Virus record (IMG/VR): IMGVR_UViG_3300031696_000011
Reading direction: 5' to 3' (one strand)
DNA: 47,813 nt
From: a virus
Positions 128 to 47,813 of the stretch are shown here, piece by piece; positions within the stretch are counted from its first letter, which is position 1; each line of letters begins with the position of its first letter. A program made the position numbers and the translations under genes. The notes beneath the pieces were generated by a model. That model was not told the DNA's origin. It saw only the letters and a list, made by a program, of their open reading frames with translations, and did not search any database.

Positions 128-954
128 AGAAAGTATCGTCGCACAAAATGGAATACGGTTCTGCGATTCACAATGCGGCGGCGGAATTTGTCAGCAAGAA
201 GTGCACGGTCATGCAAGCGGTGCAAGTTGCGATGGAATACTTTCGTGACTGTGGTTGTGATCCCGGCAAAGACTGGCGTAACGCTGGGCATTTGCTAATG
301 ACCACGAACGGATACCTGACGAAGTATATCAACGATCCATTTCAACCCGCAACACTGGAGTTAACAGATGCCGAAGGAAAGAAATTCAAACACATCGCCG
401 TTGAGTTACCCTACGAAATACCGTTTCGCTCTTACCCGCACGTTGACATTATCCTCTGCGGAGTCATCGATTCATACGGCACGATGGATGGTGTCAAATG
501 TTTCAAAGACATTAAGTCCACGGCATCATGGGACATACCTAAGTTCTTTGAGAAGTATCGCACCAGCATTCAGCTGATGATATATGCGTGGGCAATGCGA
601 CACCTAGGTTGGGTGGACTACTACCCGCCAGCGATGATCGACGGGATATTTCTGCGAGACAACATCAACAAGACTGCGAAGTTTGAACGGTCAGGGTTTA
701 TAGACTTCGAGGATTCGCAAGTCGAGGACACAATGGATTGGGTGCGTGATAGGTGCGACAGGATTGCGACGTTGCTAGAAGAAGACGCACCATTCCTAAA
801 GAACCCGACACGGTGCGAGAAACTATTTGGCAAGTGTAAGTTTATGAACGTCTGCTGGGAGAACAACGAGACGCTACGTGATGTGCATATGCGGCGATTG
901 AAGCAAGTGATCTACGACCCGAAAACATTCGGCACACCGAACAACCAGAAATAA
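1..954 (+). CDS. PD-(D/E)XK Cas4/RecB-like exonuclease (true start is the ATG at 47678, across the junction)
   Basis: Frame 1 is open from base 1 and continues the ORF that starts at the ATG at 47678. Motifs: GVIDSYG...FKDIKS (D...D/ExK), SIQLMIYAW (QxxxY), a C-terminal Cys cluster CEKLFGKCKFMNVC and an N-terminal Cys (ISDCE), as in Fe-S Cas4/AddB nucleases. Confidence 0.75.
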   Translation, partial: KRFSKYTTYVPGEKLIVRLDPSTFAISDCERELELGNLLGWVEKVSSHKMEYGSAIHNAAAEFVSKKCTVMQAVQVAMEYFRDCGCDPGKDWRNAGHLLMTTNGYLTKYINDPFQPATLELTDAEGKKFKHIAVELPYEIPFRSYPHVDIILCGVIDSYGTMDGVKCFKDIKSTASWDIPKFFEKYRTSIQLMIYAWAMRHLGWVDYYPPAMIDGIFLRDNINKTAKFERSGFIDFEDSQVEDTMDWVRDRCDRIATLLEEDAPFLKNPTRCEKLFGKCKFMNVCWENNETLRDVHMRRLKQVIYDPKTFGTPNNQK

Positions 955-8477: not shown

Positions 8478-8695
8478 GCGAAAAAATACCAGACGCAATC
8501 AATCCGTCACACTACACTAGCCATCCTTCGGGTGTTGAGTGTATCCAAATCACAGAGCACATGGGATTTAACCTTGGCAATGCGATGAAGTATATATGGC
8601 GCGCGGATTTGAAGCACGACACAATCGAAGACCTAAAGAAAGCGAGCTGGTATCTAGCCCGTGAGATCAGCAAGCGTGAAAGACTTACGCCCTAA
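8474..8695 (+). CDS. DUF3310-family phage protein, 73 aa
   Basis: Characteristic NPSHY...GVECIQI...GNAMKYIWRA..K...EDLKKASWYL pattern. ATGA overlap with the upstream gene. Confidence 0.8.
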   Translation: MSEKIPDAINPSHYTSHPSGVECIQITEHMGFNLGNAMKYIWRADLKHDTIEDLKKASWYLAREISKRERLTP

Positions 8696-22976: not shown

Positions 22977-23378
22977 TTATTTCAGCGGGCTTTTAAGTTT
23001 GGCCGCTTCTGTAATCACGTTACTCAGTCGCTCTTCCGTGGCAACACCCTTGGCTTTCACACCCGAGTCGTTCTTGTATGTTCCCTTTCGGTTACCAACA
23101 AGCTCGTCAGCTTTGCTCTTTGCAATAATGCTCAAGCCTTTTGCCCGCGACAAGTCAGCAACATCCACGCTATACGCGTTCGTAGTGTAGTATGTGATCT
23201 TATATAGTTCACCATTCGTATAGTGAACCTCAAGAGCTGACACATTGTTTGTTCCGTCTTTGGGGAACTTAGCATGGAAACCAGACTCCTGACCATACCA
23301 TAGTCCACCGCAACCCGTTAGCATCGCAGCAGCAACCGCCACCGCAGCTATGATTAGTTTTTTATTTATCTTTTTCAC
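22977..23378 (-). CDS. Lipoprotein, 133 aa (lipobox LTGC)
   Basis: N-terminus MKKINKKLIIAAVAVAAAMLTGCGG is a signal peptide II with a lipobox. GTG start. Confidence 0.7.
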   Translation of the reverse strand: MKKINKKLIIAAVAVAAAMLTGCGGLWYGQESGFHAKFPKDGTNNVSALEVHYTNGELYKITYYTTNAYSVDVADLSRAKGLSIIAKSKADELVGNRKGTYKNDSGVKAKGVATEERLSNVITEAAKLKSPLK

Positions 23379-23389
23379 AATGTCCTTGT

Positions 23390-23405
23390 AGCAATTCGCA
23401 TGCCA
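23390..23405 (-). promoter_or_regulatory. Sigma-54 type -24/-12 promoter candidate (TGGCATGCGAATTGCT)
   Basis: The minus strand reads TGGCATG-CGAA-TTGCT with canonical GG/GC spacing. It fills the 30-nt gap between the stop at 23409 and the GTG at 23378. Confidence 0.6.
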
Positions 23406-28201: not shown

Positions 28202-28217
28202 AGCACATACCATGCCA
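28202..28217 (-). promoter_or_regulatory. Sigma-54 type -24/-12 promoter candidate (TGGCATGGTATGTGCT) upstream of the capsid gene
   Basis: The minus strand reads TTGGCATGGTATGTGCTT, matching the plus-strand element at 44186-44203 at 16 of 18 positions. It is intergenic, directly after a terminator. Confidence 0.65.
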
Positions 28218-28231
28218 ACGCTGCAAGCAAG

Positions 28232-28265
28232 AAAAAAAGGAACACCCATTTCTGAGTGTTCCTTT
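28232..28265 (-). terminator. Intrinsic terminator after the scaffold gene
   Basis: Perfect 10-bp stem aaaggaacac (28236-28245) / gtgttccttt (28256-28265), followed on the minus strand by a run of 7 T. Confidence 0.75.
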
Positions 28266-28316
28266 CTCCTCATGTTTGTGCAGCGTTCAACTTGCACAGC
28301 CTTAGTCCTAACCTCC

Positions 28317-29853: not shown

Positions 29854-31741
29854 CTTCGCCAGCGGATTTCATATGCTCTTGTGCGCCTGCTAGAACATCT
29901 TGGACTTTTTGCATCGCCTCGGGCGGTAAGTTCGCGTTTTGCGAGACCGCTTGTAGAGTCGTAGCAAGTGCTTGTATAATCCCGCCAGTGGGCTTCTCGG
30001 TCCGTAGAATCTTTTCATATCTATCAGCTTGGTCAGGCAACGCTTGCTTGAGCATATCAATCATAAACTCCAGCTTCAGTGACGTCGCACTAGCCACAGG
30101 CCAGAATTCTTGCATCACGGACAACATACGTTGCTTTTGCACAACGTCGTTTTCACCTGCTGACTTTATCACAAACGAACACTCCAATAGTGTCAATCGT
30201 TCTTGCGACTTGTCGTTTGCTTTAAATGTATCGGTTGTCTCATCTTCGCCCGGTTCGACTACTCGCAGAAAGTTCGGCAGATCACCTTGTCTTGCACGTG
30301 CCTGAGCAATCGCCCAACTGCGCCGCACAATCGCTGTCTGAAACGTAGACCATCGCGTAACTGAAATCCCATCCAGTCCACTTTGCGCGCTTTCAGCTAC
30401 TTCAAATTCTTTCTTCGTCTTACGCGCATCCTTACGGTTCAACACGCCCACATTAAGCGCACCTGTCTCTTGTGAGTTTTCACCTGCAAGTGCCTGCGCC
30501 GCAAGTATAGCAGTCCCGTCTGGCGAAGGCGTCGACCAGAAGTCCACAGCCTTGTCATACATATGATCCGGGCGTAGTTCAGAATTCTCCAACACACTCG
30601 GTGCGCCTGCTCGTGTCGTGTTTGCTGCTTTAGGCGATGCGTAAATGTTAGAGCTACGCACAAGTTTATTAATAAACCCAGTCCACATCGACGTCTGCGC
30701 CTCCTGCGTGTGGTAGTCGTAAAATGCACGCCCGCGATTCTCCACAATCGACGACTCTTCTGTCCCGTGGCTAACGAATATGTCAATCGGAAACTCTGTC
30801 TCATACAACGGGCCACCGTCCTCATTCAAATCACTCGCTTTAAACGCAGATTGTATCTCACCTAGTCGCACGTTGCTTCCTAACTTCTTCCCTAGGAACA
30901 ACGGCTTCGGCACTTTCAACCACTCCATACAGCTCTCGTGATACCACGCCGTATACACAGTCCCGTTGTCAGCCTTATACAACAACTGATACACTTGCAA
31001 CACAGTATCACCATACTCTGCCGAAGACTTCTGCGCCAACATATCGACTTGATCTGCGTCGAATCCGAACTTCTTCACCCAGCTCTTGAGCTTCGACACC
31101 GTAGTATCCACGATCACAGACACATACTCCGCCATCTGAATGTCCGTGATCCCAATCGGAAACATGAACTTATCCGTTGCAAGAAACTTGTGCGAGAAAT
31201 GTCCAGGCTTGTCAGGATCGAATAGTGTCTGCAACCCAGCCCACCCAGATAACCACGCCGCATCGAGACATTTAAAGTGAGGCTCTTCCCAACCTTCAAA
31301 GCGGGACACGCGTGTGAAATCTACTTCGAGCTTGTCTGTGTTGATACCGAAACGATCTTCACATTCAAACAATGCAGTCCGTGTAGGTAGCTTTAGGTAT
31401 GCCACAAATGGCGGCTTGGCTCGTTCGATATTGGTATCGACAATACGTCGCGGATACATTCCCGCGTCTTTGGCGATCTTGCCGCTAGCACGCATGTCTT
31501 TGACATTGACATCGGCTTTGCGAACTTCGCGGTCGTTGGCGACTTGGGTGTGGATCTTTCCCCAGTCTTGGTGTAGTCGTGCGAGTTTCTCTTTGTGGTC
31601 TGCCCACGGCCAGATGAACGTGTTGCTCGTGGAGAATTCCGGCGCGAATCTTTGCTTCTCGTCTTGTTCAGGCGTAGTCAGGAGTTGTCCCGCCATCGCA
31701 AAGGTTTCTTCTACTGATTGAAGTGTAGTTGCTTTCGGCAT
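29828..31741 (-). CDS. Portal protein (positional call), 637 aa
   Basis: Immediately downstream of TerL. Size typical of portals. Acidic Gly-rich C-terminus. Confidence 0.7.
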   Translation of the reverse strand: MPKATTLQSVEETFAMAGQLLTTPEQDEKQRFAPEFSTSNTFIWPWADHKEKLARLHQDWGKIHTQVANDREVRKADVNVKDMRASGKIAKDAGMYPRRIVDTNIERAKPPFVAYLKLPTRTALFECEDRFGINTDKLEVDFTRVSRFEGWEEPHFKCLDAAWLSGWAGLQTLFDPDKPGHFSHKFLATDKFMFPIGITDIQMAEYVSVIVDTTVSKLKSWVKKFGFDADQVDMLAQKSSAEYGDTVLQVYQLLYKADNGTVYTAWYHESCMEWLKVPKPLFLGKKLGSNVRLGEIQSAFKASDLNEDGGPLYETEFPIDIFVSHGTEESSIVENRGRAFYDYHTQEAQTSMWTGFINKLVRSSNIYASPKAANTTRAGAPSVLENSELRPDHMYDKAVDFWSTPSPDGTAILAAQALAGENSQETGALNVGVLNRKDARKTKKEFEVAESAQSGLDGISVTRWSTFQTAIVRRSWAIAQARARQGDLPNFLRVVEPGEDETTDTFKANDKSQERLTLLECSFVIKSAGENDVVQKQRMLSVMQEFWPVASATSLKLEFMIDMLKQALPDQADRYEKILRTEKPTGGIIQALATTLQAVSQNANLPPEAMQKVQDVLAGAQEHMKSAGEDGGQDGGA

Positions 31742-31745
31742 AAAT

Positions 31746-33356
31746 TTAGTTTCGTGTTGCGCCCATGTAACCGTAGACTGGTGCAGATTTTCGCGACTCT
31801 CCGCGCGCGTCTACGCCAGAGAAAGAATATTTGCTTTTATCGTATTCCGCAATAATATCTTTAGTGGTTCTGCGACGAAGCAGACGTGAATTTTTAACTA
31901 GGTGTTCGTTTGAATAGAGCGGGTATTCCTTATCAGCAAGAGCAAGAACTGTGCCATCAGCACGGTCAGGAGATCCGTGACCTTTCGCACGTGCAACACG
32001 TTTTGACTCAAGCACAATTTTTCCGTGAACCGCGCCTTGCATATAGTATCGTGTCGCAAGTTGCCGCTTGAGTGCGTCGTCGTCGAACAACACAAGGTCT
32101 AGGTTCTTGAGGAATATTGCAAAGTTAAACCACATCTCTGCGCCGCGATTACCGTATGTCGAATTGTCAATCGCCCGCGCTTGGTTCAATACTCGGTTAA
32201 CTTGAAACCCGTCCTTCCACAACTGATCTATCATAGACTTGCCCACGCCGCCGTCGTCAGCGTTGATATTTTCTGGCGGAATCTTATACCTATTTATCAA
32301 ACCCTTCACATGATCCACCGCATCGGTCGTGTCGTCATACCTAAAGCAAGGCATCGCAATCTGTTTGTTGCCATCAAATATACTGAACACATTTTCGTCA
32401 CCTCCCGCCGCAAGATCAAGCCCACCGTATCGTATGCCTGTCGGTATCACAACCGGAGGTTTTCGATACGCGCGCATGACCTCTTCAAATGTCATCACTA
32501 GCATCTCGTCTATGCTACAAAATTCGGCTAGGTATGCAGACCTAAACCACGCGGAATTTTCACCGAATCGTTCTCGCGCTTCGTCTACTTCGTCCTGTGA
32601 TATGTGCGGACAGTCACGATACGTGACTTTGAACCGATGCCAACGCTCTGACTCGAAACAACCATAGAAATGCCCGGATGGGGAACCTGGTGAAGACACA
32701 TCCAACCGCCGAGTGAGATTATTACACCGGGCGAGAGCTTCGAAAATGGGCTCCGTGACAGTTTTTGCTTCGTCAACAAAGATTGCAAATTCGCCATCGG
32801 GTCGGAGAGTGTGATAACCTTCAGCCAAGCCCGCGTCGTCGGTAGCAAAGAGTTGGATCTTAGATTTGGTTGGGATAAATGTGAGACTGCGGTAGTTGAT
32901 CTTCCAGAGGATTTCGCCATGGAGCTCATTGATAAATCTGCACAGCCGTGAAACTGCGTAGAAGGTTTGTCTGTCAAGTTGCGTGCCTGACGCGGAAGTA
33001 ATCACACAATTCGCTTCCACGTGCGCCATCGCAAGCCACACTGCACACGGTGCAATTAAAAACTGCGATTTTCCCGAACCATTGTTCGCGCACGTCGCAA
33101 TACGCAACACTTTATCCGGCAGCTTGCCATGTGCAAACAACGTCATGACTTGAATCTGCCATGTGTGCACTTTTACGTCGTGATCGCGGATGTATGGGTC
33201 GTAGATGTGCAACAACATCAACGGATCTTTGATCTTGAACCCATTTGCGCCAGCCCAACCCTTCGCATCGGTAATCGACGCTTTAGGCAAGCGCGATTCC
33301 TGGTCGACAGTGGCGTTTTTGATCTGTGCTTCTACTGTTTGTCGAAAAGGCGCCAT
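31746..33356 (-). CDS. terL: Terminase large subunit
   Basis: Walker A-like CANNGSGKSQF. Walker B FAIFVDEA. C-terminal RNase H-like nuclease Asp motifs GGLDLAAGGDENV, ADDGGVG and SPDRADG. Confidence 0.85.
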   Translation of the reverse strand: MAPFRQTVEAQIKNATVDQESRLPKASITDAKGWAGANGFKIKDPLMLLHIYDPYIRDHDVKVHTWQIQVMTLFAHGKLPDKVLRIATCANNGSGKSQFLIAPCAVWLAMAHVEANCVITSASGTQLDRQTFYAVSRLCRFINELHGEILWKINYRSLTFIPTKSKIQLFATDDAGLAEGYHTLRPDGEFAIFVDEAKTVTEPIFEALARCNNLTRRLDVSSPGSPSGHFYGCFESERWHRFKVTYRDCPHISQDEVDEARERFGENSAWFRSAYLAEFCSIDEMLVMTFEEVMRAYRKPPVVIPTGIRYGGLDLAAGGDENVFSIFDGNKQIAMPCFRYDDTTDAVDHVKGLINRYKIPPENINADDGGVGKSMIDQLWKDGFQVNRVLNQARAIDNSTYGNRGAEMWFNFAIFLKNLDLVLFDDDALKRQLATRYYMQGAVHGKIVLESKRVARAKGHGSPDRADGTVLALADKEYPLYSNEHLVKNSRLLRRRTTKDIIAEYDKSKYSFSGVDARGESRKSAPVYGYMGATRN

Positions 33357-34096
33357 ACTAGTCTCTTATATTTACTCATATCGTGGTCTTGAACTGGGTT
33401 AAAGTTAAATTGGCGTATTGCACTCCACACTCCTTGGAATAAATCACGCAATAGAAACATGCGCGAAGGATTTACGTGGAACTCGCCACGTGTATCGAAG
33501 TGAATAAGCGGGACTGCAATACGCCGAAAATTAATCACAGGAATCCACGTCACAATATCGTTGTTGTCCCGAAACGTGACCGCATGCTTGTCGCCAGCGA
33601 ACCTACGTGCGTATTTTCCGTTCCCTACTCGAGGACTAGCGAACGCGCACAGGTAAATTGCCGGGTTTGTGGTTGGGAATCCGTATGTTTTCGTGTTCGA
33701 ATACATAATCGTCGCTATCGCCGCGCCTAGACTATGCCCTGTGAACACAATTCTGTCATACGTAGGTTGGCGACGCAAGATTTCAACCAACAACCCTAAC
33801 CACACCCCTTGCACACGTCGCATAAACCCACGATGCACGCGACTTCCATCTTTGTCGAACTTCACTTTCCTCACCATCACGTTCGCAACCCAGTCTCGCG
33901 CCGCAAGCGTGCCGCGCACTGCCACATACAACGTCCTGTCTTTGTTGTCTAGGTGCAGTATCGCATGTGTGCCGTGAGTTCCGTCGAACTTCATATACAG
34001 GCTTGAATCGCCATATGCCTCAACACACAAATCTGCCGCGCAAGTGACCCATCGTGACTGTAGATGCGCGTGTTTGTATATCGGGTTAGACATCAA
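33332..34096 (-). CDS. Class 3 lipase-family alpha/beta hydrolase (Lipase_3)
   Basis: VAVRGTLAARDWVANV, HRGFMRRV, the nucleophile elbow FTGHSLGAAIA, FASPRVGN and DIVTWIP occur in the order typical of PF01764. Confidence 0.85.
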   Translation of the reverse strand: MMSNPIYKHAHLQSRWVTCAADLCVEAYGDSSLYMKFDGTHGTHAILHLDNKDRTLYVAVRGTLAARDWVANVMVRKVKFDKDGSRVHRGFMRRVQGVWLGLLVEILRRQPTYDRIVFTGHSLGAAIATIMYSNTKTYGFPTTNPAIYLCAFASPRVGNGKYARRFAGDKHAVTFRDNNDIVTWIPVINFRRIAVPLIHFDTRGEFHVNPSRMFLLRDLFQGVWSAIRQFNFNPVQDHDMSKYKRLVWRLFDKQ

Positions 34097-34505
34097 CTGG
34101 TTGCCCTTTCGTAATTCGCTCGTTGAGTCGCAACATATCTTTCTCGTAGCTGCTATTCGCTTCCACGATCACAGTGTTGAACACCGCCGCCGTCATTTCG
34201 CTTTCACGCTCGCCTGGATTGAAACATCCGTGCGCGAGTTTGATAATAAACTCACTTGCCCGCTGCGCCACACCCGGCGATTCTTCTTCCAGATACGTCA
34301 AGTTCTGCATCGTCCGCAACGCTCCTGGCGCAAGCTTCGCCGCCTCTTCTTGCAAGTCTAACGTCGGCGCCTTACGCCCTTTCGCAGACATCAAACATAT
34401 CTGCGTCACCGCCTCTGGCGTCATTCCCATCGCATCGGCAATACTTTCTATCGGCATCCCTTGTTGGTGATGCATCGCCGAGATTCGCTTTTGATCGCTG
34501 TTCAT
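34086..34505 (-). CDS. HTH-containing protein, possible terminase small subunit, 139 aa
   Basis: Helix-turn-helix-like MPIESIADAMGMTPEAVTQ near the N-terminus. Lies upstream of TerL, separated from it by the lipase gene. Confidence 0.4.
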   Translation of the reverse strand: MNSDQKRISAMHHQQGMPIESIADAMGMTPEAVTQICLMSAKGRKAPTLDLQEEAAKLAPGALRTMQNLTYLEEESPGVAQRASEFIIKLAHGCFNPGERESEMTAAVFNTVIVEANSSYEKDMLRLNERITKGQPVDV

Positions 34506-34723
34506 ATTGTTACGCCAGTAAACTGTTCCACCAACATTCTTTCGCTCTCCCTCGCTTCACCTTTGATGTCTGCGTCGTGCGCCGCAGGCCTACGGCTCGC
34601 ACATTCGCCCTCTTCTCCTTTCCACCTCCACTGCAACATCTTATTCATCGGCGCCGTCGTCGCACTTCTAATCGTTGCACTCCCAAACCCTACTTCTTTT
34701 CCTCTATGCTTGTGTGTATTCAT
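34502..34723 (-). CDS. Hypothetical protein, 73 aa, first ORF of the late operon
   Basis: ATGA overlap with the downstream gene supports translation. Its ATG lies 14 nt downstream of the C of the -12 GC of the promoter-like element. Confidence 0.4.
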   Translation of the reverse strand: MNTHKHRGKEVGFGSATIRSATTAPMNKMLQWRWKGEEGECASRRPAAHDADIKGEARESERMLVEQFTGVTI

Positions 34724-34735
34724 TCTCTATCTTAT

Positions 34736-34751
34736 AGCAATTCCCATGCCA
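34736..34751 (-). promoter_or_regulatory. Sigma-54 type -24/-12 promoter candidate (TGGCATGGGAATTGCT) at the head of the late operon
   Basis: The minus strand reads TGGCATG-GGAA-TTGCT with correct GG-N10-GC spacing. It sits at the upstream edge of the ~26-kb minus-strand gene array. Confidence 0.65.
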
Positions 34752-35151
34752 TGCTTCCGTGCGTCGTTTCGTGTACCACGTTTTCACAATCAAATATGTC
34801 AAGTCGATTCGTAATTTTGGTCATTTTGTAAGATATACACTGTTCGGATGCCGAACTCAGATCGGGCTTTTTATTTCCGCGGCGTAGGATTAGATCGCCT
34901 AATGGTTAGCATAAGGAAAACTAATCATAAGTGAATTACTTATATATGTTAAGCGCGCGGGAAGTTAATACATACGCCAAGCGGGGACGCCGTGAATCCT
35001 TAACAACTTTGGTTAGGAATTGAATCGCCAGTGTGAAAACCCTAGAAAATCGCCGGAGGATCAGAGAGCACGACGAGAGGGCAAACATGAAACGCATATG
35101 TCTTTTCAGAATATCCGGTTTGGTCTGGGGAATGGGCGGTTACTCTTTTCC

Positions 35152-35182
35152 GTGGAATGTGAAGAGAACCTTTCCATTCCAC
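35152..35182 (+). repeat. Hairpin element R1 containing the 18-nt repeat gtgaagagaacctttcca
   Basis: 8-bp arms gtggaatg (35152-35159) / cattccac (35175-35182). The 18-mer at 35159-35176 recurs exactly at 35306-35323. Confidence 0.8.
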
Positions 35183-35305
35183 CCCCCCGCTCTCGAATGG
35201 GCAAATGGGCAATTCCACATTAAAGAGGATTTAATAAAAAAAACATATATACCAAATACTCTCTTTTGTGGTCTACCAAAGTTGCTAACAGTCGACGGAG
35301 AAGTA

Positions 35306-35334
35306 GTGAAGAGAACCTTTCCACATTCCACATT
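35306..35334 (+). repeat. Second copy (R2) of the 18-nt repeat, followed by tandem ccacatt-ccacatt
   Basis: Exact 18-nt match to 35159-35176, with flanking ttccac similarity. Confidence 0.8.
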
Positions 35335-35409
35335 CTCTCCCTTGTCCCTTGTCCGGTTCATGGTTCATACGGTTCCACGCTTTGCTTTGATTCACGCCAG
35401 AGGATGAAG

Positions 35410-35503
35410 GAATGAAGGAGCGGGAGAGTGAAGGAGCGCACGACGCAAGGGAATGGACAAGGGAAGGAGCGCGGAGAATGGGAGTGAATGAAGGAGCGCG
35501 GAG
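35410..35503 (+). repeat. Direct repeats: GAAGGAGCG x4 (35414, 35430, 35463, 35490); 14-mer gaaggagcgcggag x2; 13-mer gaatgaaggagcg x2
   Basis: Counted directly in the sequence. A fifth degenerate copy, aaaggagca, is at 35521. Confidence 0.85.
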
Positions 35504-35612
35504 GTAATAGGTAAAGGGGAAAAGGAGCATGGGAAAAGAATCAGAAGAAAAAGCGAATAGGGGTTGACGGGAAAAGGGAAAGAGTCCATTCTCTCCGTGT
35601 CGCCAATTGGTG

Positions 35613-35637
35613 ACCCGGATTTATCCGGTTGTTTTTT
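35613..35637 (+). terminator. Weak intrinsic terminator candidate
   Basis: 5-bp GC-rich stem ccgga / tccgg (35615-35619 and 35624-35628) with loop ttta, then ttgtttttt. Confidence 0.35.
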
Positions 35638-35861
35638 GACAGGTTCGCAGTTGAGACGGTTTCCATGAAACCAGATTGACTAGAACAAATTGAATAGGTG
35701 AAAGGAAAACCTTTCACGCCGGTGGAGTATCGGCACAAGTCCTAAGCTTGCGAATGAGTTCATTGCCTTCGAAAATTCAGGGTTACAAGCCAAAGTAGAG
35801 TTGTGTCTAACGTTCAAGATCGGCGGTGAAATGGAATGGCCGGAAACTTAGAGAAATTGGG

Positions 35862-35890
35862 TTTACATAGGAGAATCTCTGGATTCTAAT
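35862..35890 (+). promoter_or_regulatory. Sigma-70 type early promoter candidate (TTTACA-N17-TCTAAT)
   Basis: -35 TTTACA at 35862-35867, a 17-nt spacer, and -10 TCTAAT at 35885-35890, directly upstream of the first plus-strand gene. Confidence 0.5.
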
Positions 35891-35938
35891 ATGTGGATTC
35901 GCCCGGTAATAATGCCACGAATTCACATTTTAAAACCT

Positions 35939-36697
35939 ATGTCAAACACACAAACATTGGAAATTCCAACCAAACGCAATGTCAAGTCTGCCGATATTGC
36001 AACGGGAAAAGGTATCACTGGCGCCGACGCTAAGAACCAAAGCTCTGTGAAATATTGGGACGAGGGTGGAGCATTCAACACGATCGCAGTTGCAAGACTC
36101 GTCCGTGAAATTGCTACCAAGTCTGCAAAGCGTGGATACAATATCAATGTGACCAGTCTCGCTGCTGCCGCTGCAAAACGGATCAAAGCGACTGTTGGCA
36201 AAGATATGTTGACTCGGGAAGAGTTCTACGCTGTGACGGATGCTGCTAACGTGTTACTTTTCAATCTCATCAGTGATATTGAAAACGACACCGACGGTGG
36301 ATTCGTCAACGAGGACGGTTCACGCTGCGGATACGAGCGCGAGTCGTTCTCTGCCGAGAAGATCAACGTCAACCATAAATTGGAGAAGGTGCATCTCACC
36401 AAGACTGCAACGTGGCGCAAGTTGCTCGACCGTGTGACGGAGATTGACAAGCTGGAAGAGGCTATTGCGAACAAAGTCGCGAGCCTCCGCAAGCTGCGTG
36501 AACGTCAGAACGATTCGTTCGATGCCGACAAGATCGACGAAATGGGATTGCAAATCCTGTCCGGCGAGGAATGGTTGGAGCGAAGTGATTCGCTACTCGC
36601 CAAAGACGGTTGGAAGCCTGTGCAAGACGACGCACACTATGTGAACCCATCTTCCCGGAACTACTGGGAAGAATTCGGCAACACCATTGCCGAGTGA
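35939..36697 (+). CDS. Early hypothetical protein, ~252 aa
   Basis: The ORF is open from 35891, but that ATG lies inside the promoter candidate. In-frame ATGs at 35912 and 35939 are more plausible starts. A strong terminator follows. Confidence 0.55.
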   Translation: MSNTQTLEIPTKRNVKSADIATGKGITGADAKNQSSVKYWDEGGAFNTIAVARLVREIATKSAKRGYNINVTSLAAAAAKRIKATVGKDMLTREEFYAVTDAANVLLFNLISDIENDTDGGFVNEDGSRCGYERESFSAEKINVNHKLEKVHLTKTATWRKLLDRVTEIDKLEEAIANKVASLRKLRERQNDSFDADKIDEMGLQILSGEEWLERSDSLLAKDGWKPVQDDAHYVNPSSRNYWEEFGNTIAE

Positions 36698-36703
36698 AGC
36701 AAA

Positions 36704-36740
36704 GCGGGAGAGGACTTCAAACTCTCCCGCACTTTTCGTT
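36704..36740 (+). terminator. Intrinsic terminator
   Basis: 9-bp stem gcgggagag (36704-36712) / ctctcccgc (36722-36730), followed by acttttcgtt. Confidence 0.7.
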
Positions 36741-37003
36741 CCTTCAAATCTGCGTTGCATTGCATTGCAGCATAGATTTGAGCGAATCATATTCGTTCTA
36801 CTGCGGACCATTGCACACACTGTGCATAGCCAGCCGCAACGCTAGCTAGTAGGTCACAAGAGTTCTTGTGCAATCACTGTATTGCATACCCTCTTCGTCT
36901 ACAATAGCGAGATACGCCCGGCAGAACTAGACTGAAAACTACGGGATAGACGACAGAACACAAGAACTGTGTATTGTGCTCGTGATACTACGAAAGGAAT
37001 ATC

Positions 37004-37270
37004 ATGAAAAAACTTATATTGCAGGCTGAACAGTTGCGTCAAGAATGCAACATGGCTATCTCCAATATCAGAGCACGTCTATCCCATGTCCCTTGGGAAC
37101 AAGGGTTGCGGATGGACTCAGAACTCACTGAATGTCATTTGCACAGATGCGCGAATATGTTGCGGAACATTAGCGACGACTGTGCAAACAACAGAGTCAG
37201 TGAGGTGTCAGCGCAAGGCGACATCGCAGGTGTTGAAAAGCACATGACGGTGATTGCGAAATACTTGTAA
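37004..37270 (+). CDS. Early hypothetical protein, 88 aa
   Basis: Preceded by aaaggaatatc-ATG, one of the few clear SD-like sites in the window. Confidence 0.6.
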   Translation: MKKLILQAEQLRQECNMAISNIRARLSHVPWEQGLRMDSELTECHLHRCANMLRNISDDCANNRVSEVSAQGDIAGVEKHMTVIAKYL

Positions 37271-37592
37271 CCCTATCTCACGGGCACACTACACGGTTCT
37301 TGGATGTGAAAGATCTGTCAGCGGCAATCTATGGGACCGCACAGTCAAGAACGAGCGGATAAATACAGTGTTGGGAATCGCGATTGCGCCGCAGGCTTGT
37401 GATACTACGCAAGCCACGGAGATGCAAAACCTACCCGACACAACTTCTGGGACGACTACTCTAGTATTGGCTGAAGGGAGACGAAGCATTAGAAACGGCA
37501 GAGAGTGGAGAGAAATCCATGTGACAAACTCTGTTTATGACCGTTCCGCGTATAGGTTAGCGGCTATTGGCAAGGTAAATGCTCCCGTGTAG
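37254..37592 (+). CDS. Doubtful ORF, 112 aa (an internal start at 37422 is possible)
   Basis: It is the only ORF filling 37.27-37.6 kb. Overlaps the upstream stop. No motifs. Its 3' end contains a promoter-like element. Confidence 0.3.
   Translation: MRNTCNPISRAHYTVLGCERSVSGNLWDRTVKNERINTVLGIAIAPQACDTTQATEMQNLPDTTSGTTTLVLAEGRRSIRNGREWREIHVTNSVYDRSAYRLAAIGKVNAPV
37568..37583 (+). promoter_or_regulatory. Weaker sigma-54 type -24/-12 match (TGGCAAGGTAAATGCT)
   Basis: Correct GG/GC spacing. Shares TGGCA-GGTA--TGCT with the elements at 28202 and 44187. A terminator follows about 50 nt downstream. Confidence 0.35.
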
Positions 37593-37631
37593 GACAATGG
37601 TTCTACAAGATAAACCCGAATTACACGATTG

Positions 37632-37675
37632 GGAGCGCACAGTTTACAGACACTCTGTGCGCTCCTTCTCTTTTT
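37632..37675 (+). terminator. Intrinsic terminator
   Basis: Perfect 11-bp stem ggagcgcacag (37632-37642) / ctgtgcgctcc (37655-37665), followed by ttctcttttt. Confidence 0.8.
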
Positions 37676-37719
37676 CATATCTCAATTCAGACTAGGGATA
37701 GCATAGCTTGAATTCAGAT

Positions 37720-37878
37720 ATGAAAGAATACAAACATCACCGTTTATGTGGGCATGGTGGAATCAAATGCCCTTGCTGTTCGCCGATGAACACAGTCAAG
37801 AAATCACGTGTTATGATTAACCGCCGATACCGGCGCACGTGCAAACAAGAACTGCATACCTATGACGAAAGCGAATAA
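37720..37878 (+). CDS. Small basic Cys-rich protein, 52 aa (below the ORF-track cutoff)
   Basis: Translated by hand: MKEYKHHRLCGHGGIKCPCCSPMNTVKKSRVMINRRYRRTCKQELHTYDESE. Has a CxH...CPCC zinc-knuckle-like pattern and a basic tail. Confidence 0.45.
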   Translation: MKEYKHHRLCGHGGIKCPCCSPMNTVKKSRVMINRRYRRTCKQELHTYDESE

Positions 37879-38053
37879 GATCAGAGATGGCCCTGTCATG
37901 GGCTAATATTCTCAATCACCGAAGTTGGCCCGGTAATAATAGGCCAACACATACTTCAATTCAGGAGGAAGTGTAGACCATCGGCGAAATGTTTGATTAT
38001 GACCCAAACTACTGACGGTAACGCTAGGTGGAGCCTTCCTTCTGAATTGAATT

Positions 38054-38994: not shown

Positions 38995-39010
38995 TGGCAT
39001 GGTTCTTGCT
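38995..39010 (+). promoter_or_regulatory. Sigma-54 type -24/-12 promoter candidate (TGGCATGGTTCTTGCT)
   Basis: TGGCATG-GTTC-TTGCT sits in the 78-nt gap between the genes ending at 38989 and starting at 39068. It matches the consensus TGGCACG-N4-TTGCW at all but one position. Confidence 0.65.
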
Positions 39011-39067: not shown

Positions 39068-39433
39068 ATGACAATCAAGCACACACAAACACGTGCGCCA
39101 GTTAGGGTTGCTAACCACTTTCGCGTTGCTAAGTATCGCGAGACACTGTGGATAGTGTATACACTGACTGATCTCATTGCCAAGATCAAAGCGTCGATGC
39201 TAGCATCAGGTAAACACAGGCATATTGTGGTCGTGACACACTTCGATCATGTCAGTGTGGACAGTGATGGTGTGACGTTTCACAGGTATGAAAGTATCAG
39301 CACAGGACATTCGTATATGAATAACGAAATCATTATACCATCGTGCGAACTTACGGCAGGTGCATTAGAGAGGCTTGAACATATGCAAGAACACTCTGCA
39401 CTATGCAGTCAAGTTGATCGACAACAATCATGA
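39068..39433 (+). CDS. Hypothetical protein, 121 aa
   Basis: First ORF downstream of the promoter-like element. ATGA overlap with the next gene. Confidence 0.55.
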   Translation: MTIKHTQTRAPVRVANHFRVAKYRETLWIVYTLTDLIAKIKASMLASGKHRHIVVVTHFDHVSVDSDGVTFHRYESISTGHSYMNNEIIIPSCELTAGALERLEHMQEHSALCSQVDRQQS

Positions 39434-39678
39434 ACACAAGAAATAAACCTTGCCCCTGTGGAAGCGGGAGCAAACACAAGAAGTGTTGCTTAGCTAAGCA
39501 GCAAGAACAACGGAAGCTTGATAGCGAACCCGAAGGGTTGCGGCGTAATCGTAAACACAAGAAGTCACTTGTCCCTGCGGCAATTACACTAGCTGCAACA
39601 GATCAACTGCTAGACTGTGGCCCGAAGTCTACGCTTCCGAACTTCAACATCAACGCATTCAACACTGACAATGAGTGA
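39430..39678 (+). CDS. SEC-C motif protein, 82 aa
   Basis: N-terminal KPCPCGSGSKHKKCC is the SecA C-terminal metal-binding (SEC-C) motif. Confidence 0.7.
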   Translation: MNTRNKPCPCGSGSKHKKCCLAKQQEQRKLDSEPEGLRRNRKHKKSLVPAAITLAATDQLLDCGPKSTLPNFNINAFNTDNE

Positions 39679-40327
39679 CCATATTCCATCGCACAACCCA
39701 ACACCGTTGCCTACCGTGCTCAAGGTGCCGGGATACAGTGTTGCTGTGTCTCGTTTGATCGACTGGATCATTGCACCGGGCGAAATTGTGGGTGCAGGTG
39801 GGTTGCTTGAACCGCGCGAGATTAACATCGTGCTTGCAGACTTCATGCTACGGCATTCCAAGTTCCACGAATACGGAATGATCCACGCTGTTGAACAAAT
39901 GGGCGAGCACACACGCTACTGGCTGTGGCGTAAACGTGACTGGAGCGAGCGAGCACATGTGCATCGTATCGACAAGGCAAAGAACGACATTGAACGAACA
40001 CGGAGTATGCGTAGCACCAAGACACGCGACACAATCTTTAGTCGGTTGTGTAAAATGTTCCCGAAGTTTCTGACTGAGCGTAAGCTGGGTATGGAAATGG
40101 TTCGGATGTGGATCAGTGAACACGACGACAACGACGAGTTCAAGTATTGGCTGAACAAGATGGGATACTTTGAACTGTCGGAAACTGATAGAGCTGCGGT
40201 TGAAGAGGCAGCGGATGAAGCAGACGAGATTGAAGCAGCAGATCCGTTCGATCCGAATTGGATCAGCGAGATAGACGCAGGACTACTTGCACGAATGAAG
40301 AAGGAATACAGCAAACCATTATCATGA
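39671..40327 (+). CDS. Hypothetical protein, 218 aa (acidic C-terminus)
   Basis: The ATG at 39671 gives an 8-nt overlap with the upstream gene. The ORF track's longer form would overlap by 62 nt. Confidence 0.55.
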   Translation: MSDHIPSHNPTPLPTVLKVPGYSVAVSRLIDWIIAPGEIVGAGGLLEPREINIVLADFMLRHSKFHEYGMIHAVEQMGEHTRYWLWRKRDWSERAHVHRIDKAKNDIERTRSMRSTKTRDTIFSRLCKMFPKFLTERKLGMEMVRMWISEHDDNDEFKYWLNKMGYFELSETDRAAVEEAADEADEIEAADPFDPNWISEIDAGLLARMKKEYSKPLS

Positions 40328-42468
40328 CACCTGAACAGATCAAAGCATCGCTATTCAAGCTGATGCCTAAAGCAGCACCGGGCAATGCGCTTGCACGTGC
40401 TGAAGAACAAGCGAAAGTTGACGCGGAGAAACGACAACGTGCACGTGCTGTGCTAGAAGCAGAGGTTGCTAAGTTCGTTGGCGAATCAGCTGCGTCTAAC
40501 ATGGGTGAGAAACGACTTCGCGAGATGCGAGACATTGGACGCAAGGCTGCGGAAGATGCGACGTTCCATGCTGCACTTGCCGATGCGAAAGATAACCCTG
40601 TTGATACTGTTGACGAACAGATCGCCGCGCTGACTAGCATTCACGAGAACAAAACACCTGCTCGTGGACGTATGACACCTGCTACTCACGACAAGATGTC
40701 TGCTGTTATCAAGTTCGAGCCTGAAGTATTGGACATGTATGCCATGCGATACGGCAGCGACGAGAAGAAATCGTTCCGCATTGATTTGGAAAACCGAATG
40801 CTTCCATGCTTGAAACAGTTCAATCGTGGCCCGAAGTTACTGCACTTTCAAACACATCCGTTACCAAGGGCATTGCGTTTGCTTGGAGACGAGCATCAAT
40901 CAGCATTGTTGATCGCGCCGACAGGTGCGGGCAAGACATACTTCTTTGCGACGTTGATTAAATATCTGCGACTATACTTTCCCGAAGACTATCCGAAAGA
41001 TAGACAGATCATGGTTGTCACGAAGCCAACGGTGGTTAAGCAGACACAGCGTGTGTTGTTCGGTGAGTTTGGGATTACGAATGTGATGGTGACGTCGTAT
41101 CCAGAGATGACACGGTCGCAGATTAGTGGGATATATGTATCATGGGAGACACGGGTTACGAGAGATGGTGAGGTGAAAGAGGTTCCGATATGGAATCCAG
41201 TGTTCAGGCCGTCACTAATCATATGGGATGAGTGTCAGTGTCTCAAGAATTTCGGCAGCACACAGAGCATAATTGCAGCAGCGTATGGGCAACGATTGAA
41301 TCCGACAGGACATGTGGCAAGTGCAGCGGATTGGGAAGGTGACCCGATTAGTTTGAGTGTGTCTGCCACGCCATACTCACGTCCGCAGAATGCGAAGGTT
41401 GTGATCTCGTTGCTAGGCCCAGTGATTAACAATCGCAAGGTAACACTTAACAACTTCAACGAGTGGGCACGGGATATATGTGCAAGACACAACACAGACT
41501 TAGATAAGTGGAGTCCGGTTGCGATGAAGAGTATTCAGGATTCGATTGAACACCTTACGATTAGGTTCGACAGGATTCAGTATCGGAAGCGGACACTTAT
41601 CAAACAGAAGGTGATTGAGTTCGAGACGGTGGAAGAGAAGAGCGAATACGGTGAAGCGTTTACTGAATACATGAAGAAGCGCGAGGAGTTGGAGGCGAAA
41701 GAACTGTCGTCAGGAACTGAGATACTAGTGGCGATGATGATGTTTCGCAAGAAGGCAGAGATCATTCGTGCACCGCGGCTTGCACAGATGGGACTGGATA
41801 GTATGGACTTGAGCAACAACGTAATCATTGCGTGTGCATTTCGTGAGACACTTGAAACAATCAACGAACTGTTGCTAGACGTTGGTGTAGGTAGTGACAA
41901 GATTGCACAGATCAAAGGAGGACAAACAGCAGATGCCAGACAAAAACAAATCGACGGATTCCAACGGGACGAGCGTCATATTATGTTGCTTATGTTTAGT
42001 GCAGGTGGAGCGGGACTTTCGTTACATCAATCAAACACTGGAGATTTCCCGAACAAACGTCCACGAGTTGTGTATCTGCCACCAGTGTGGAACGCAGAGG
42101 AACTCGTTCAAGTCCTTGGTCGAGCACATCGCGTTACTTCTGATAGCACAACTCGACAATACATAGTCTGGTATAAGGACACGATCGAGAGCGAGGTTGC
42201 TGAGAAAGTTAAGAAGAAGTGTAGCGCACTTAAAGAAGTTGTCGGGAAGAAAGAAGACTGGAGTATTGCATTCGCAGGCAAGGAGATTGGTGAAGGGATA
42301 GAAGATCAGATGGAGATAAATTTCAAAGGTGTGCGAGACAAGAGCGACGAAGAAGTGAATGACGACGACGACGAGAATGAAGTGGCATCAGACTTCGAGG
42401 TCATGGATTCTGAGGAAGAACTCAAGCGAGCCGAGGTTGCGGATGCTATACTTGAACATACATTATGA
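40324..42468 (+). CDS. SNF2/SF2-family helicase, ~714 aa
   Basis: Motif I LLIAPTGAGKTYF. Motif II IIWDECQCLKN. Motif V MFSAGGAGLSLH. Motif VI QVLGRAHRVTS. ATGA-coupled start at 40324. Confidence 0.85.
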   Translation: MTPEQIKASLFKLMPKAAPGNALARAEEQAKVDAEKRQRARAVLEAEVAKFVGESAASNMGEKRLREMRDIGRKAAEDATFHAALADAKDNPVDTVDEQIAALTSIHENKTPARGRMTPATHDKMSAVIKFEPEVLDMYAMRYGSDEKKSFRIDLENRMLPCLKQFNRGPKLLHFQTHPLPRALRLLGDEHQSALLIAPTGAGKTYFFATLIKYLRLYFPEDYPKDRQIMVVTKPTVVKQTQRVLFGEFGITNVMVTSYPEMTRSQISGIYVSWETRVTRDGEVKEVPIWNPVFRPSLIIWDECQCLKNFGSTQSIIAAAYGQRLNPTGHVASAADWEGDPISLSVSATPYSRPQNAKVVISLLGPVINNRKVTLNNFNEWARDICARHNTDLDKWSPVAMKSIQDSIEHLTIRFDRIQYRKRTLIKQKVIEFETVEEKSEYGEAFTEYMKKREELEAKELSSGTEILVAMMMFRKKAEIIRAPRLAQMGLDSMDLSNNVIIACAFRETLETINELLLDVGVGSDKIAQIKGGQTADARQKQIDGFQRDERHIMLLMFSAGGAGLSLHQSNTGDFPNKRPRVVYLPPVWNAEELVQVLGRAHRVTSDSTTRQYIVWYKDTIESEVAEKVKKKCSALKEVVGKKEDWSIAFAGKEIGEGIEDQMEINFKGVRDKSDEEVNDDDDENEVASDFEVMDSEEELKRAEVADAILEHTL

Positions 42469-42779
42469 ACAAAGATCTAGCACTAGAAGATGCGATTGAA
42501 TTGATCGACGCGATCATGAAGGGTGAGATAAACCCGGAGGATGAGTGTGAGAAATGGCTGAGGGCATATGCACCTAAGCGATTACGAGATGCTACGAGCC
42601 ACGACAAGGACAAGATAGCTGAACACAATGTGAGAATCATACACATTATGCAGAAGATAAATTGGCTTGAAGGACAGTGGGACAGGAACGACAACAACAA
42701 CAAATGTAACAAGTTTGTTCAAGACAAGCTGACGAAACTACACACAGAACTAACCAAACTACAAACAAAAGATGAGTGA
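42465..42779 (+). CDS. Hypothetical protein, 104 aa
   Basis: ATGA overlap with the helicase gene. Confidence 0.5.
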   Translation: MNKDLALEDAIELIDAIMKGEINPEDECEKWLRAYAPKRLRDATSHDKDKIAEHNVRIIHIMQKINWLEGQWDRNDNNNKCNKFVQDKLTKLHTELTKLQTKDE

Positions 42780-43200
42780 TACAGACCTGACCAAAGAAGA
42801 GATTGCGGACGGCGACGACTACATTGCCGAGACAATCGCGCAACAAGCGCGAGACAAAGCTGCGGCAAAGAAACCACCAGCACGACAGCTTGAATTGTAT
42901 GTGATCTTCGCGTGGAAGACACCGCAGTATAGGCTGCACGAATGGTGTCAGACTGGTGAGACGGCACCTAACGACTCTCAGTGTGTGCATTGTGATCGCA
43001 CGATGGGTGACGCTGATGATCGTGTATGTGATTCAGGCATGGCTGGTGCGCTTGGTGGATGGAACGACTACAAAGGTGGTAGTGGAAACTTCGGCATTGC
43101 GATGTTGAAGTGGCAGACATTGAAAGCGCAAGGACATAACAACTGTCAGGTGTTGAACATACACAGCGGCAAGCTAGAGTTGGAGGTGTATGATGCTTAG
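42772..43200 (+). CDS. Hypothetical protein, 142 aa
   Basis: 8-nt overlap with the upstream gene. Contains CVHCD...C Cys residues. Confidence 0.5.
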   Translation: MSDTDLTKEEIADGDDYIAETIAQQARDKAAAKKPPARQLELYVIFAWKTPQYRLHEWCQTGETAPNDSQCVHCDRTMGDADDRVCDSGMAGALGGWNDYKGGSGNFGIAMLKWQTLKAQGHNNCQVLNIHSGKLELEVYDA

Positions 43201-44176
43201 CACAGAGGAGTTGGCGCGGATAAATGAGGCGACCAAACGGCAAGCGGCAACTGTTGAAGCGAACAAGGCGCGGTTGCTAAATCAACCACCGAACCCTAGC
43301 GGAGTGGATCACGGTGCGATCAAACGTAAGCTAGAAAAGATGGGACTGTTTGAGTTGGCGAATGATCTCAAGGTCTGTCGTCCAGCAAGTCTTGCTTCGC
43401 TTGATGAGTTTATCACAGATGACGCGGCGATGTTGCGGCTCAAGAAACAGGTTGAGTATCTGTGCGAGATGGATGACCCAGTGTTGATTCACGGTGAGAG
43501 TGGGACAGGCAAGGAGTTGATAGCTCGTGCGTTGCATGGACGAAAGTCAGCGCCGTTTATCGCAGTCAACACGACAGCACTACCACTTCATCTGATGGAG
43601 AGTGAGTTATTTGGTCATGCGAAAGGATCATTCACCGGTGCAGATGCGAACAAGATCGGGATACTTGAAGGCGCAGGTAACGGGACTGTGTTTCTGGATG
43701 AGATAGGTGACATGGAGTTGACGCTGCAATCGAAGTTGTTGCGTGTGTTGCAAGAGAAAGTAATCAGACCTGTCGGCACGAATGCTGAGCGTGAGATACA
43801 TTGTCGAGTAGTGGCAGCCACGCATCAGGTGATACGACGTGAGGAAACAGTTCATGGAACTAAGTCAGTCACGTGGAAGAAAGGTTTCCGTCAGGATTTA
43901 TACTGGCGTCTTGCTACACACACGCTTCACATCTCACCGCTTCGTGATCGTCCAGATGATATCCGTGAGATACTAGATGCGGTCATAGATCCTGACCAAC
44001 GATTGCCTGAATCATTCCGTGACGAGATGGTAACGATGCAACTGGAAGGCAACTTCCGTGAACTCAATGCGTTGTGTCAGCGTAAGTTTCTTGCAATGAA
44101 AGTGGACGATACGCAGGGTGAACTTTATATACCCGGTGTTGTGACACACGCAGCCTACGTCCACACAAAAGAGTAA
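43190..44176 (+). CDS. Sigma-54 interaction-domain AAA+ ATPase (minimal bacterial enhancer-binding protein; no sensory domain or HTH seen)
   Basis: VLIHGESGTGKELIARALH (Walker A), FGHAKGSFTGA (GAFTGA loop, nt 43625-43642), GTVFLDEIGDM (Walker B), LQSKLLRVLQE, FRQDLYWRL, ISPLRDRPDDI and GNFRELNA. About 95 aa precede the module and about 30 aa follow it. Confidence 0.9.
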   Translation: MMLSTEELARINEATKRQAATVEANKARLLNQPPNPSGVDHGAIKRKLEKMGLFELANDLKVCRPASLASLDEFITDDAAMLRLKKQVEYLCEMDDPVLIHGESGTGKELIARALHGRKSAPFIAVNTTALPLHLMESELFGHAKGSFTGADANKIGILEGAGNGTVFLDEIGDMELTLQSKLLRVLQEKVIRPVGTNAEREIHCRVVAATHQVIRREETVHGTKSVTWKKGFRQDLYWRLATHTLHISPLRDRPDDIREILDAVIDPDQRLPESFRDEMVTMQLEGNFRELNALCQRKFLAMKVDDTQGELYIPGVVTHAAYVHTKE

Positions 44177-44186
44177 CGCAACCTGT

Positions 44187-44202
44187 TGGCACGGTATGTG
44201 CT
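44187..44202 (+). promoter_or_regulatory. Sigma-54 type -24/-12 promoter candidate (TGGCACGGTATGTGCT)
   Basis: TTGGCACG-GTAT-GTGCTG begins 11 nt after the activator gene's stop and lies 28 nt upstream of the ATG at 44230. Confidence 0.65.
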
Positions 44203-47681: not shown

Positions 47682-47813
47682 GCCTTAAACGATTCAGCAA
47701 ATATACAACCTACGTCCCCGGTGAGAAACTCATCGTGCGACTAGATCCATCCACGTTTGCAATCTCTGACTGCGAGCGTGAGCTTGAGCTAGGCAACCTG
47801 TTAGGTTGGGTGG
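47678..47813 (+). CDS. First ~45 codons of the same Cas4-like nuclease gene (continues at base 1..954)
   Basis: The ATG at 47678 overlaps the TGA of the preceding gene (ATGA). Reading MSLKRFSKYTTYVPGEKLIVRLDPS... joins frame 1 at base 1 through the 127-nt overlap. Confidence 0.7.
   Translation, partial: MSLKRFSKYTTYVPGEKLIVRLDPSTFAISDCERELELGNLLGWV
47687..47813. repeat. Right copy of exact 127-nt terminal overlap
   Basis: Identical to 1..127. A length of 127 nt is what a k=127 assembler leaves on a circular contig. Confidence 0.95.

Follow-up and report, generated by a model that had tools for sequence, protein, structure and literature searches.

A probable sigma-54 promoter at the head of the late genes of an uncultured marine phage, and the phage-encoded activator predicted to open it

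The 47,813-nt DNA of IMG/VR virus record IMGVR_UViG_3300031696_000011, referred to here in its full length as the window, comes from an uncultured marine phage. At positions 34751..34736 of its minus strand, where the leftward late genes begin, it carries a sequence of the sigma-54 type, with elements at -24 and -12. This sequence is probably a promoter opened by an activator that the phage itself encodes (43190..44176), and the first of at least three that would drive the leftward genes. The promoter call is supported by the motif itself, by its enrichment and conservation, and by the presence of a cognate activator gene. The chances that the resulting late mRNA would be translated as an essentially leaderless message are, on the sequence, about even. 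The elements on which the argument turns are the following:

34736..34751, minus strand: TGGCATGGGAATTGCT (GG-N10-GC), a predicted -24/-12 promoter of the sigma-54 type that heads the leftward late arm.
34723..34727, minus strand: predicted transcription start zone, from the -24/-12 convention and a 19-bp rule (PMC4591121).
34502..34723, minus strand: first late open reading frame (ORF), 73 aa, of a conserved micro-protein family GFSxxTIxxCxxxP[LM]..W, recognised by profile search and in relatives.
34086..34505, minus strand: small-terminase-like protein of 139 aa, with a weak helix-turn-helix near its N-terminus; its gene is joined to the first late ORF by an ATGA.
43190..44176, plus strand: predicted sigma-54 activator (bacterial enhancer-binding protein, bEBP), with a helical N-terminus of about 70 aa and an AAA+ domain, and no DNA-binding domain.

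The initial annotation had read TGGCATG-GGAA-TTGCT with GG-N10-GC spacing at 34751..34736, and letters, coordinates and spacing all check out: GG occupies 34750/34749, GC occupies 34738/34737, and the two are separated by exactly 10 nt. Compared with the sigma-54 consensus TGGCAC-N5-TTGCW, TGGCATGGGAATTGCT agrees at 12/12 specified positions if Y is allowed at position 6, and across the family a T is favoured 5' of the motif. With the C of the GC taken as -12, the predicted +1 falls at 34725; the rule that places +1 19 bp downstream of the motif centre (Bonocora et al., PMC4591121) gives 34724-34725. The ATG of ORF 34502..34723 begins at 34723, 12 nt past the last base of the motif, and the predicted leader of the late mRNA, computed from the sequence, is 1-2 nt, in line with the earlier estimate of about 2 nt. 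The proposed coupling of the first ORF to the next gene is also there, the TGA of 34502..34723 overlapping the ATG of 34086..34505 in an ATGA. The accompanying statement that no sigma-70-like pair is present holds in part. One 10/12 pair, TTAACA-17-TATGAT, does exist about 170 nt upstream (34952..34924, minus strand), but it occurs at chance frequency relative to shuffles and is not conserved in L001, a phage 93% related to this one (L001, L004, L165 and so on are labels of related loci), and it was rejected as the late promoter. Also upstream, the window and L001 share a block at 34796..34880 (-45 to -125 relative to the late promoter) with about 90% conservation, and the flanks on both sides diverge. 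A hairpin in this block, GTTCGGCATCCGAAC, carries a compensatory double change in L001. On neither strand does it fold more stably than shuffles, and the minus strand lacks a proper U-run; given a stability that matches shuffles, it was not called a terminator.

The motif is strongly over-represented in the window. With at most one mismatch, TGGCAYGNNNNTTGCW is matched 7 times where 1.35 matches are expected, and 0/100 shuffles reach 7. A scored scan, in which GG and GC were fixed and the other ten positions scored, was compared between the observed and the shuffled genome:

Score 12/12 (TGGCAYG-N4-TTGCT): 3 observed vs 0.03 per shuffle, at 23390 (minus), 34736 (minus) and 38995 (plus).
Score 11/12: 3 observed vs 0.46 per shuffle, at 28202 (minus), 31941 (minus) and 44187 (plus).
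Score 10/12: 6 observed vs 2.92 per shuffle, about twice expectation.
Score 9/12: 11 observed vs 13.7 per shuffle, background level.

The comparison of motif density with shuffled sequence that the initial annotation had proposed came out in favour of the motif. Of the six best-scoring sites, five lie between genes, and none of the six runs against the orientation of its neighbouring genes. Besides the late-head site, these are:

38995..39010, plus strand: predicted sigma-54 site, 12/12, ahead of an eight-gene block (39068..44176) in which the activator gene is last.
44187..44202, plus strand: predicted sigma-54 site, 11/12, 10 nt past the activator stop codon and ahead of replication genes.
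28202..28217, minus strand: predicted internal late sigma-54 site, 11/12, from the motif scan.
23390..23405, minus strand: predicted sigma-54 site within the late arm, 12/12; a lipoprotein gene has its GTG 11 nt further on.
31941..31956, minus strand: candidate intragenic sigma-54 site, 11/12, TGGCACAGTTCTTGCT, within the terminase-like ORF and 200 nt before the next gene.

The same pattern recurs in the relatives. The window and 84 related loci together make 85 sequences (1.19 Mb), in which the strict motif TGGCAYR-N4-NTGCW has 136 copies compared with 2-9 (about 6) in shuffles, an enrichment of about 20-fold; at least one copy is present in 78/85 sequences. A sigma-54 site lies 3' of the activator gene in 69/79 loci, at most 62 nt from the stop codon in 60 of them. 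Another site is typically found 4-7 kb upstream of the activator gene, its equivalent in the window being 38995..39010, with counterparts in L001 (6451) and L004 (6217). The late-head site of L001 is identical to that of the window. It is also present in L004, L165, L166 and L167, whose activators are 50-55% identical to that of the window, in L009/13, L024, L038, L054, L056, L060, L076 and L081, and, with one mismatch, in L023/25/27. All these late-head sites are found where the leftward arm begins and read against the direction of the activator gene, and their position is kept in relatives with activators only about 40-55% identical. The 93% relative occurs in the Tara samples ERZ2783055 and ERZ2783057, and L166 belongs to assembly GCA_041438375.1. 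When the late-head sites of ten lineages are aligned, the only invariant columns are TGGCA, G and TGCT, and spacer and flanks are unalignable; judged by sequence, a -24/-12 promoter would be expected to leave just such a pattern.

The identification of the 43190..44176 protein as a sigma-54 activator, made in the initial annotation, is borne out by a Pfam Sigma54_activat match to residues 75-246 (E = 1.6e-53) and by the presence of a GSFTGA loop. The AAA+ domain aligns with those of FleQ, NtrC1, ZraR and PspF (FleQ AAA+, E = 8e-45), and when the activator is aligned with 19 homologues, GESGTGKE (Walker A), DEIGD (Walker B), the GSFTGA loop and several arginines do not vary. In its AlphaFold model (mean pLDDT 84.7) the AAA+ fold occupies residues 79-308, with about 20 disordered residues behind it, and the N-terminus forms one long and three short helices. 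Pfam gave no match for HTH_8 anywhere in the protein and none at all for residues 1-70, where no REC, GAF, PAS or V4R sensory or receiver domain is present. Among the upstream regions of five sigma-54 sites in the window, no common 6-9-mer that could serve as a shared enhancer was found, an absence that fits activation from solution. Because it lacks HTH_8, ends in about 20 disordered residues after the AAA+ lid and has no shared upstream k-mer to bind, the activator is, by its sequence, a member of the enhancer-independent subclass and not of the classical bEBP architecture. The AAA+-only fragment DctD250 likewise fires many sigma-54 promoters without an enhancer (PMC3844500). A Pfam scan of the 53 other proteins of the window detected no sigma-54, sigma-70 or RNA polymerase family.

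From these elements a mechanism can be proposed. Host RNA polymerase with sigma-54 would sit on the late-head site as a closed, silent complex. As the AAA+ activator builds up, it would open the promoter using ATP, engaging the polymerase from solution because it has no DNA-binding domain, and it would open the phage sites 38995, 44187, 28217 and 23405 in the same way. The activator gene lies inside the block headed by site 38995, which implies positive feedback, so that the switch would be self-reinforcing. Transcription would begin at about 34725, some 0-4 nt ahead of the AUG of the 73-aa micro-protein; ribosomes would load at this 5'-proximal AUG without a Shine-Dalgarno sequence and would then move from gene to gene across overlaps such as ATGA until they reach the terminase genes. 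The sequence itself shows the motif with its enrichment and conservation, the domains of the activator, the conserved ORF and the conserved spacing; that sigma-54 binds, that the activator works from solution, where transcription starts and that translation is leaderless are the steps that we infer here.

The case for a leaderless message begins with the first late ORF itself. The window and L001 share 78% DNA identity here; the ORF remains open in L001, with an in-frame 30-nt deletion, and the ATGA junction is kept. A profile built from nine such ORFs has non-seed matches in L023, L025 and L027 (E ~1e-9, hmmsearch) and in L056, and these matches, together with the motif common to the small late-head ORFs, indicate a conserved micro-protein of 29-73 aa. 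The distances from the end of the sigma-54 motif to its ATG are:

10 nt: L166.
12 nt: the window, L001 and L081.
13 nt: L004 and L009/13.
14 nt: L076.
15 nt: L038, L060 and L023/25/27.
16 nt: L167.
47 nt: L024.
50 nt: L054.

L165 has only a GTG, at 13 nt, and in L056 the small ORF is far from the site. The ATG thus lies 10-16 nt past the motif in about 10 of 14 lineages, corresponding to a predicted leader of 0-6 nt, and the start codon is ATG in every near-leaderless lineage. While the spacers vary in both sequence and length, the ATG stays inside a 7-nt window. An ATG at 12-15 nt follows 13/21 unique leftward sites compared with 6/95 rightward ones, the latter being the chance rate (Fisher p = 6e-8, a value that overstates independence, as the lineages are related). 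Shine-Dalgarno motifs precede 9/54 genes, against a background of 11%, and the 20 nt before starts are 39% A; this low use points to a host that may initiate translation without Shine-Dalgarno pairing. As a further host clue the Bacteroidota-type -7 box (TAnnTTTG) was considered; it occurs at three intergenic places only and was not used. The predicted 5' ends are weakly structured, yet the same as shuffles, and do not discriminate. In the first late unit, from 34723 down to 28317, genes overlap or abut, an arrangement that could let ribosomes entering at the 5' AUG get as far as the terminase genes through translational coupling.

The automatic gene calls at L004 2094..2109, L166 278..293 and L167 2277..2292 start the first late ORF inside or upstream of the motif. 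In these three loci the conserved micro-protein begins at the ATG 10-16 nt past the motif, and the public gene models of the first late ORF are probably too long.

Several points weigh against this account of the late mRNA and its activation. The activity of the activator is deduced from sequence alone. In L024 and L054 the ATG is 47-50 nt away, and a minimal leader is therefore not obligatory. Krishnan et al. (2010) are said to have found that a few extra 5' nucleotides reduce leaderless translation in E. coli. Finally, site 23405..23390 overlaps the ribosome-binding region of a longer transcript, and the site at 34751 could be alike. The lipoprotein gene that follows it (22977..23378, minus strand, VKKINKKLIIAAVAVAAAMLTGC, with a signal peptide ending in LTGC) has its GTG 11 nt past the motif, and the AAGGA upstream of this GTG occupies -7 to -3 of the promoter. 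With the AAGGA inside the promoter, the gene must be read from a longer transcript, and closeness of promoter and start codon need not mean leaderless translation.

This arrangement speaks for a first alternative, in which the sigma-54 holoenzyme would bind and fire at the late head, while translation of the first ORF would use a longer message begun further upstream, within or past the 1.1-kb gene-free region. The sigma-54 mRNA would serve only the downstream genes, and the closeness of the ATG would be a by-product of fitting a ribosome-binding region into the promoter. L011, L012, L014 and L020 have a well-spaced AAGGA before an ATG 16 nt past the motif, and several late-head spacers are G-rich immediately ahead of the ATG. 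Those G-rich runs, though, lie 0-1 nt from the ATG, too near for a Shine-Dalgarno sequence, which this genome in any case rarely uses. An upstream start could be sought in the sigma-70-like pair at 34952..34924, but, as noted above, that pair is neither conserved nor above chance, and in five relatives no genes are called upstream. The alternative also leaves unexplained why the ATG is held at 10-16 nt in about ten lineages with changing spacers, and we regard it as rather unlikely.

In a second alternative the motif would be read not by host sigma-54 but by a phage-encoded factor, for example a very divergent sigma-54-like early protein. Most early ORFs are without annotation, and in Pectobacterium phage Q19 an early protein with weak HHpred similarity to sigma-54 has been proposed to be of this kind (PMC7693777). 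In the window, ORF 39068..39433 (plus strand), the first gene past site 38995, contains RVAKYRETL, which resembles an RpoN box (ARRTVAKYRESL). Even at E = 10 this ORF gives no match to a Sigma54 family, L001 does not conserve the gene, and RVAKYRETL occurs in none of the 84 related loci; with no Pfam match and no conservation, the resemblance is probably a coincidence. The DNA motif, moreover, is the cellular sigma-54 consensus base for base, and the activator retains the loop that contacts cellular sigma-54. A phage-encoded reader of the motif is therefore very unlikely.

Slightly less likely again is a third possibility, that the activator mainly switches on the host sigma-54 regulon and that the phage sites are sponges or roadblocks. 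An activator without a DNA-binding domain should indeed be promiscuous and fire host promoters too (PMC3844500). Sponges, however, would require neither orientation nor placement, whereas the phage sites are intergenic, co-oriented with genes and at operon heads, one of them just past a terminator, and the site 3' of the activator gene is kept in most loci. That the late-head motif is a functionless chance match is scarcely credible: a lone 12/12 match can arise in a large enough sequence, but here there are three perfect matches in one genome, the enrichment extends over the 85 sequences, and the late-head site is conserved across lineages with only its two elements invariant.

The initial annotation had placed a single late operon of about 26 kb behind the late-head site. 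The site does head the leftward array, but the single unit does not hold, since a terminator and further sigma-54 sites (28217..28202, 23405..23390 and possibly 31956..31941) split it into several units. The terminator is as follows:

28229..28271, minus strand: strong intrinsic terminator, hairpin followed by U7, -24 kcal/mol, z = -4.3; 0/200 shuffles fold as well.

It lies directly upstream of the site at 28217..28202; a simple terminator scan missed it, and folding against shuffles picked it up. The function of the intragenic site 31941..31956 is uncertain; its sequence, TGGCACAGTTCTTGCT, is identical to the rightward site at 6451 in L001, and intragenic sigma-54 sites are frequent in E. 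coli (PMC4591121). A weaker 10/12 motif, TGGCAAGGTAAATGCT, occurs at 37568..37583 (plus strand), at the 3' end of ORF 37254..37592 and before a 494-nt gap.

An exact terminal repeat of 128 nt (window positions 1..128 = 47686..47813) marks the genome as circular and complete, with a length of 47,685 bp, and 7.5% of it is intergenic. In the Pfam scan, replication genes were found on the rightward arm (helicase, ligase, PD-(D/E)XK nuclease, AAA_24/Sak4 and family A DNA polymerase), and the leftward arm gave tail fibre, minor tail, virion structural and SU10-adaptor matches. Because of these structural matches and of the homology of a terminase-like ORF, it seems reasonable to label the leftward arm as the packaging and structural arm. 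This ORF is:

31746..33356, minus strand: large-terminase-like ORF, 536 aa, with Walker A-like NNGSGKSQ and Walker B-like IFVDEA.

Its syntenic counterparts in L004 and L167 are 56-57% identical to it, and the one in L165 matches Pfam Terminase_6N. A gene syntenic to 34086..34505 (138-182 aa) is found in L001, L004, L165 and L167. Between the small- and large-terminase-like genes of the window lies a class-3 lipase gene (33332..34096, minus strand; Pfam Lipase_3, E = 1e-22), a slot taken in relatives by an RNase_T gene (L004, L165) or a methyltransferase gene (L167). The leftward arm is closed by an ORF of 1,758 aa (8692..13968, minus strand), which converges with the end of the rightward arm at 8692/8695. 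At the other end, a gene-free, purine-skewed stretch of 1.1 kb (34752..35890) separates the divergent arms; it contains about five copies of GAAGGAGCG (35407..35503) and two of GTGAAGAGAACCTTTCCA. The equivalent region is likewise gene-free in L001, L004 and L165-167, and it may be an origin or control region. No Rfam families and no tRNA genes were found in the window.

Relatives of the activator are encoded by at least 146 IMG/VR contigs, and in the protein database short activators of 260-360 aa that lack a DNA-binding domain are numerous on contigs of 45-55 kb. In a collection of 50,697 phage records, a tblastn search with the activator returned only mislabelled bacterial contigs and a few metagenomic fragments, and no such activator in cultured phages. 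Megablast of 30000..38000 and tblastn of a portal-sized ORF against these records gave zero matches, and the DNA polymerase reached 23-25% identity only; among the phage records searched there was thus no cultured relative of the genome and no host clue. Related viral contigs sought with the terminase-like ORF alone were not found. A profile scan of cellular genome contigs yielded, among the matches listed, activators of many phyla at no more than 48% identity, and no host could be assigned from them.

Phages are known to take over host transcription with their own polymerases, sigma factors, anti-sigma factors or antiterminators. New here would be a phage that supplies only the ATPase that unlocks sigma-54 and places sigma-54 promoters before every middle and late block. 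The sigma-54 holoenzyme is silent until activated, which would give such a phage a very tight off-state. The switch, if the proposal is true, would also be sharp, would reinforce itself and would not need sigma-70, so that the phage could go on to shut sigma-70 down. A natural, enhancer-free activator reduced nearly to its AAA+ core would be promiscuous and would probably fire the host sigma-54 regulon during infection. With the first late AUG kept so near the predicted start, leaderless translation from a sigma-54 promoter could be studied here, in a system poor in Shine-Dalgarno sequences. In practical terms, the short activator and its 16-bp promoters could serve as compact, orthogonal expression parts, and the motif together with the gene signature offers a handle for spotting this phage group in metagenomes. 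In its widest form, the proposal is that a widespread uncultured clade of mostly 45-55 kb virulent phages relies on host sigma-54 for everything that it transcribes after the early phase, with a single AAA+ activator, encoded by the phage, independent of enhancers and in positive feedback, replacing a polymerase, sigma factor or anti-sigma factor of its own, and with an essentially leaderless late mRNA whose ribosomes load at the micro-protein AUG and reach the terminase genes by coupling. We give this full combination a little less than an even chance.

Set against known systems, the proposal is a variant of sigma-54/bEBP activation and of phage redirection of the host polymerase, not a categorically new mechanism. 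In the full-text literature searched, a coverage that leaves out most subscription journals, no phage turned up that encodes a sigma-54 activator and also has its genes behind sigma-54 promoters. The nearest case is Pseudomonas aeruginosa phage YuA, whose development is described as strictly dependent on host sigma-54 (Ceyssens et al. 2008, as cited in PMC5053324 and PMC10914365), and whose sigma-54-like promoter P015 was found by promoter trap and ONT-cappable-seq. For YuA a single such promoter is described, whereas the present phage has five or six predicted ones, covering middle and late genes. No Pseudomonas phage matched the activator in the tblastn search of the phage records, and YuA thus appears to rely on host activators. 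For phage phi1422, a phiPLPE-like myovirus, there is a brief remark on a gene for a 'sigma-54-type regulator', described as co-opted from the cell (PMC3391216). Unlike the combination considered here, no promoters were analysed and no transcription programme was proposed in that case.

Natural activators without a DNA-binding domain are represented by FlgR of Helicobacter pylori and CtcC of Chlamydia. DctD250 and PspF(1-275) are engineered AAA+-core activators that act from solution, enhancer-free and promiscuously (PMC3844500). The phage activator is like all four in having an AAA+ core with a GAFTGA-type loop, but those are cellular or laboratory proteins, the natural ones controlled by receiver domains, while this one is encoded by a phage. 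Its helical N-terminus, about 70 aa long, is of a different kind and contains no regulatory domain that could be recognised, and its gene lies within its own predicted regulon.

In late transcription of phage T4, gp55 and gp33 act with the gp45 sliding clamp, and the host core polymerase reads the late promoters. The phage described here would resemble T4 in a phage-encoded, enhancer-like activation step and in late genes freed from sigma-70. T4, however, brings its own sigma-like proteins and couples transcription to replication forks, whereas here host sigma-54 would be used unchanged, with the ATPase the only phage input detected. For the message itself, a precedent is the leaderless phage mRNA of lambda cI, transcribed from PRM. 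Leaderless mRNAs have also been mapped genome-wide in S. meliloti (PMC3616915). The late mRNA proposed here would share with both an AUG at or beside the 5' end and the lack of a Shine-Dalgarno sequence; theirs, however, come from promoters of the sigma-70 family and start exactly at the A, while this one would come from a promoter of the sigma-54 type with a predicted leader of 0-6 nt.

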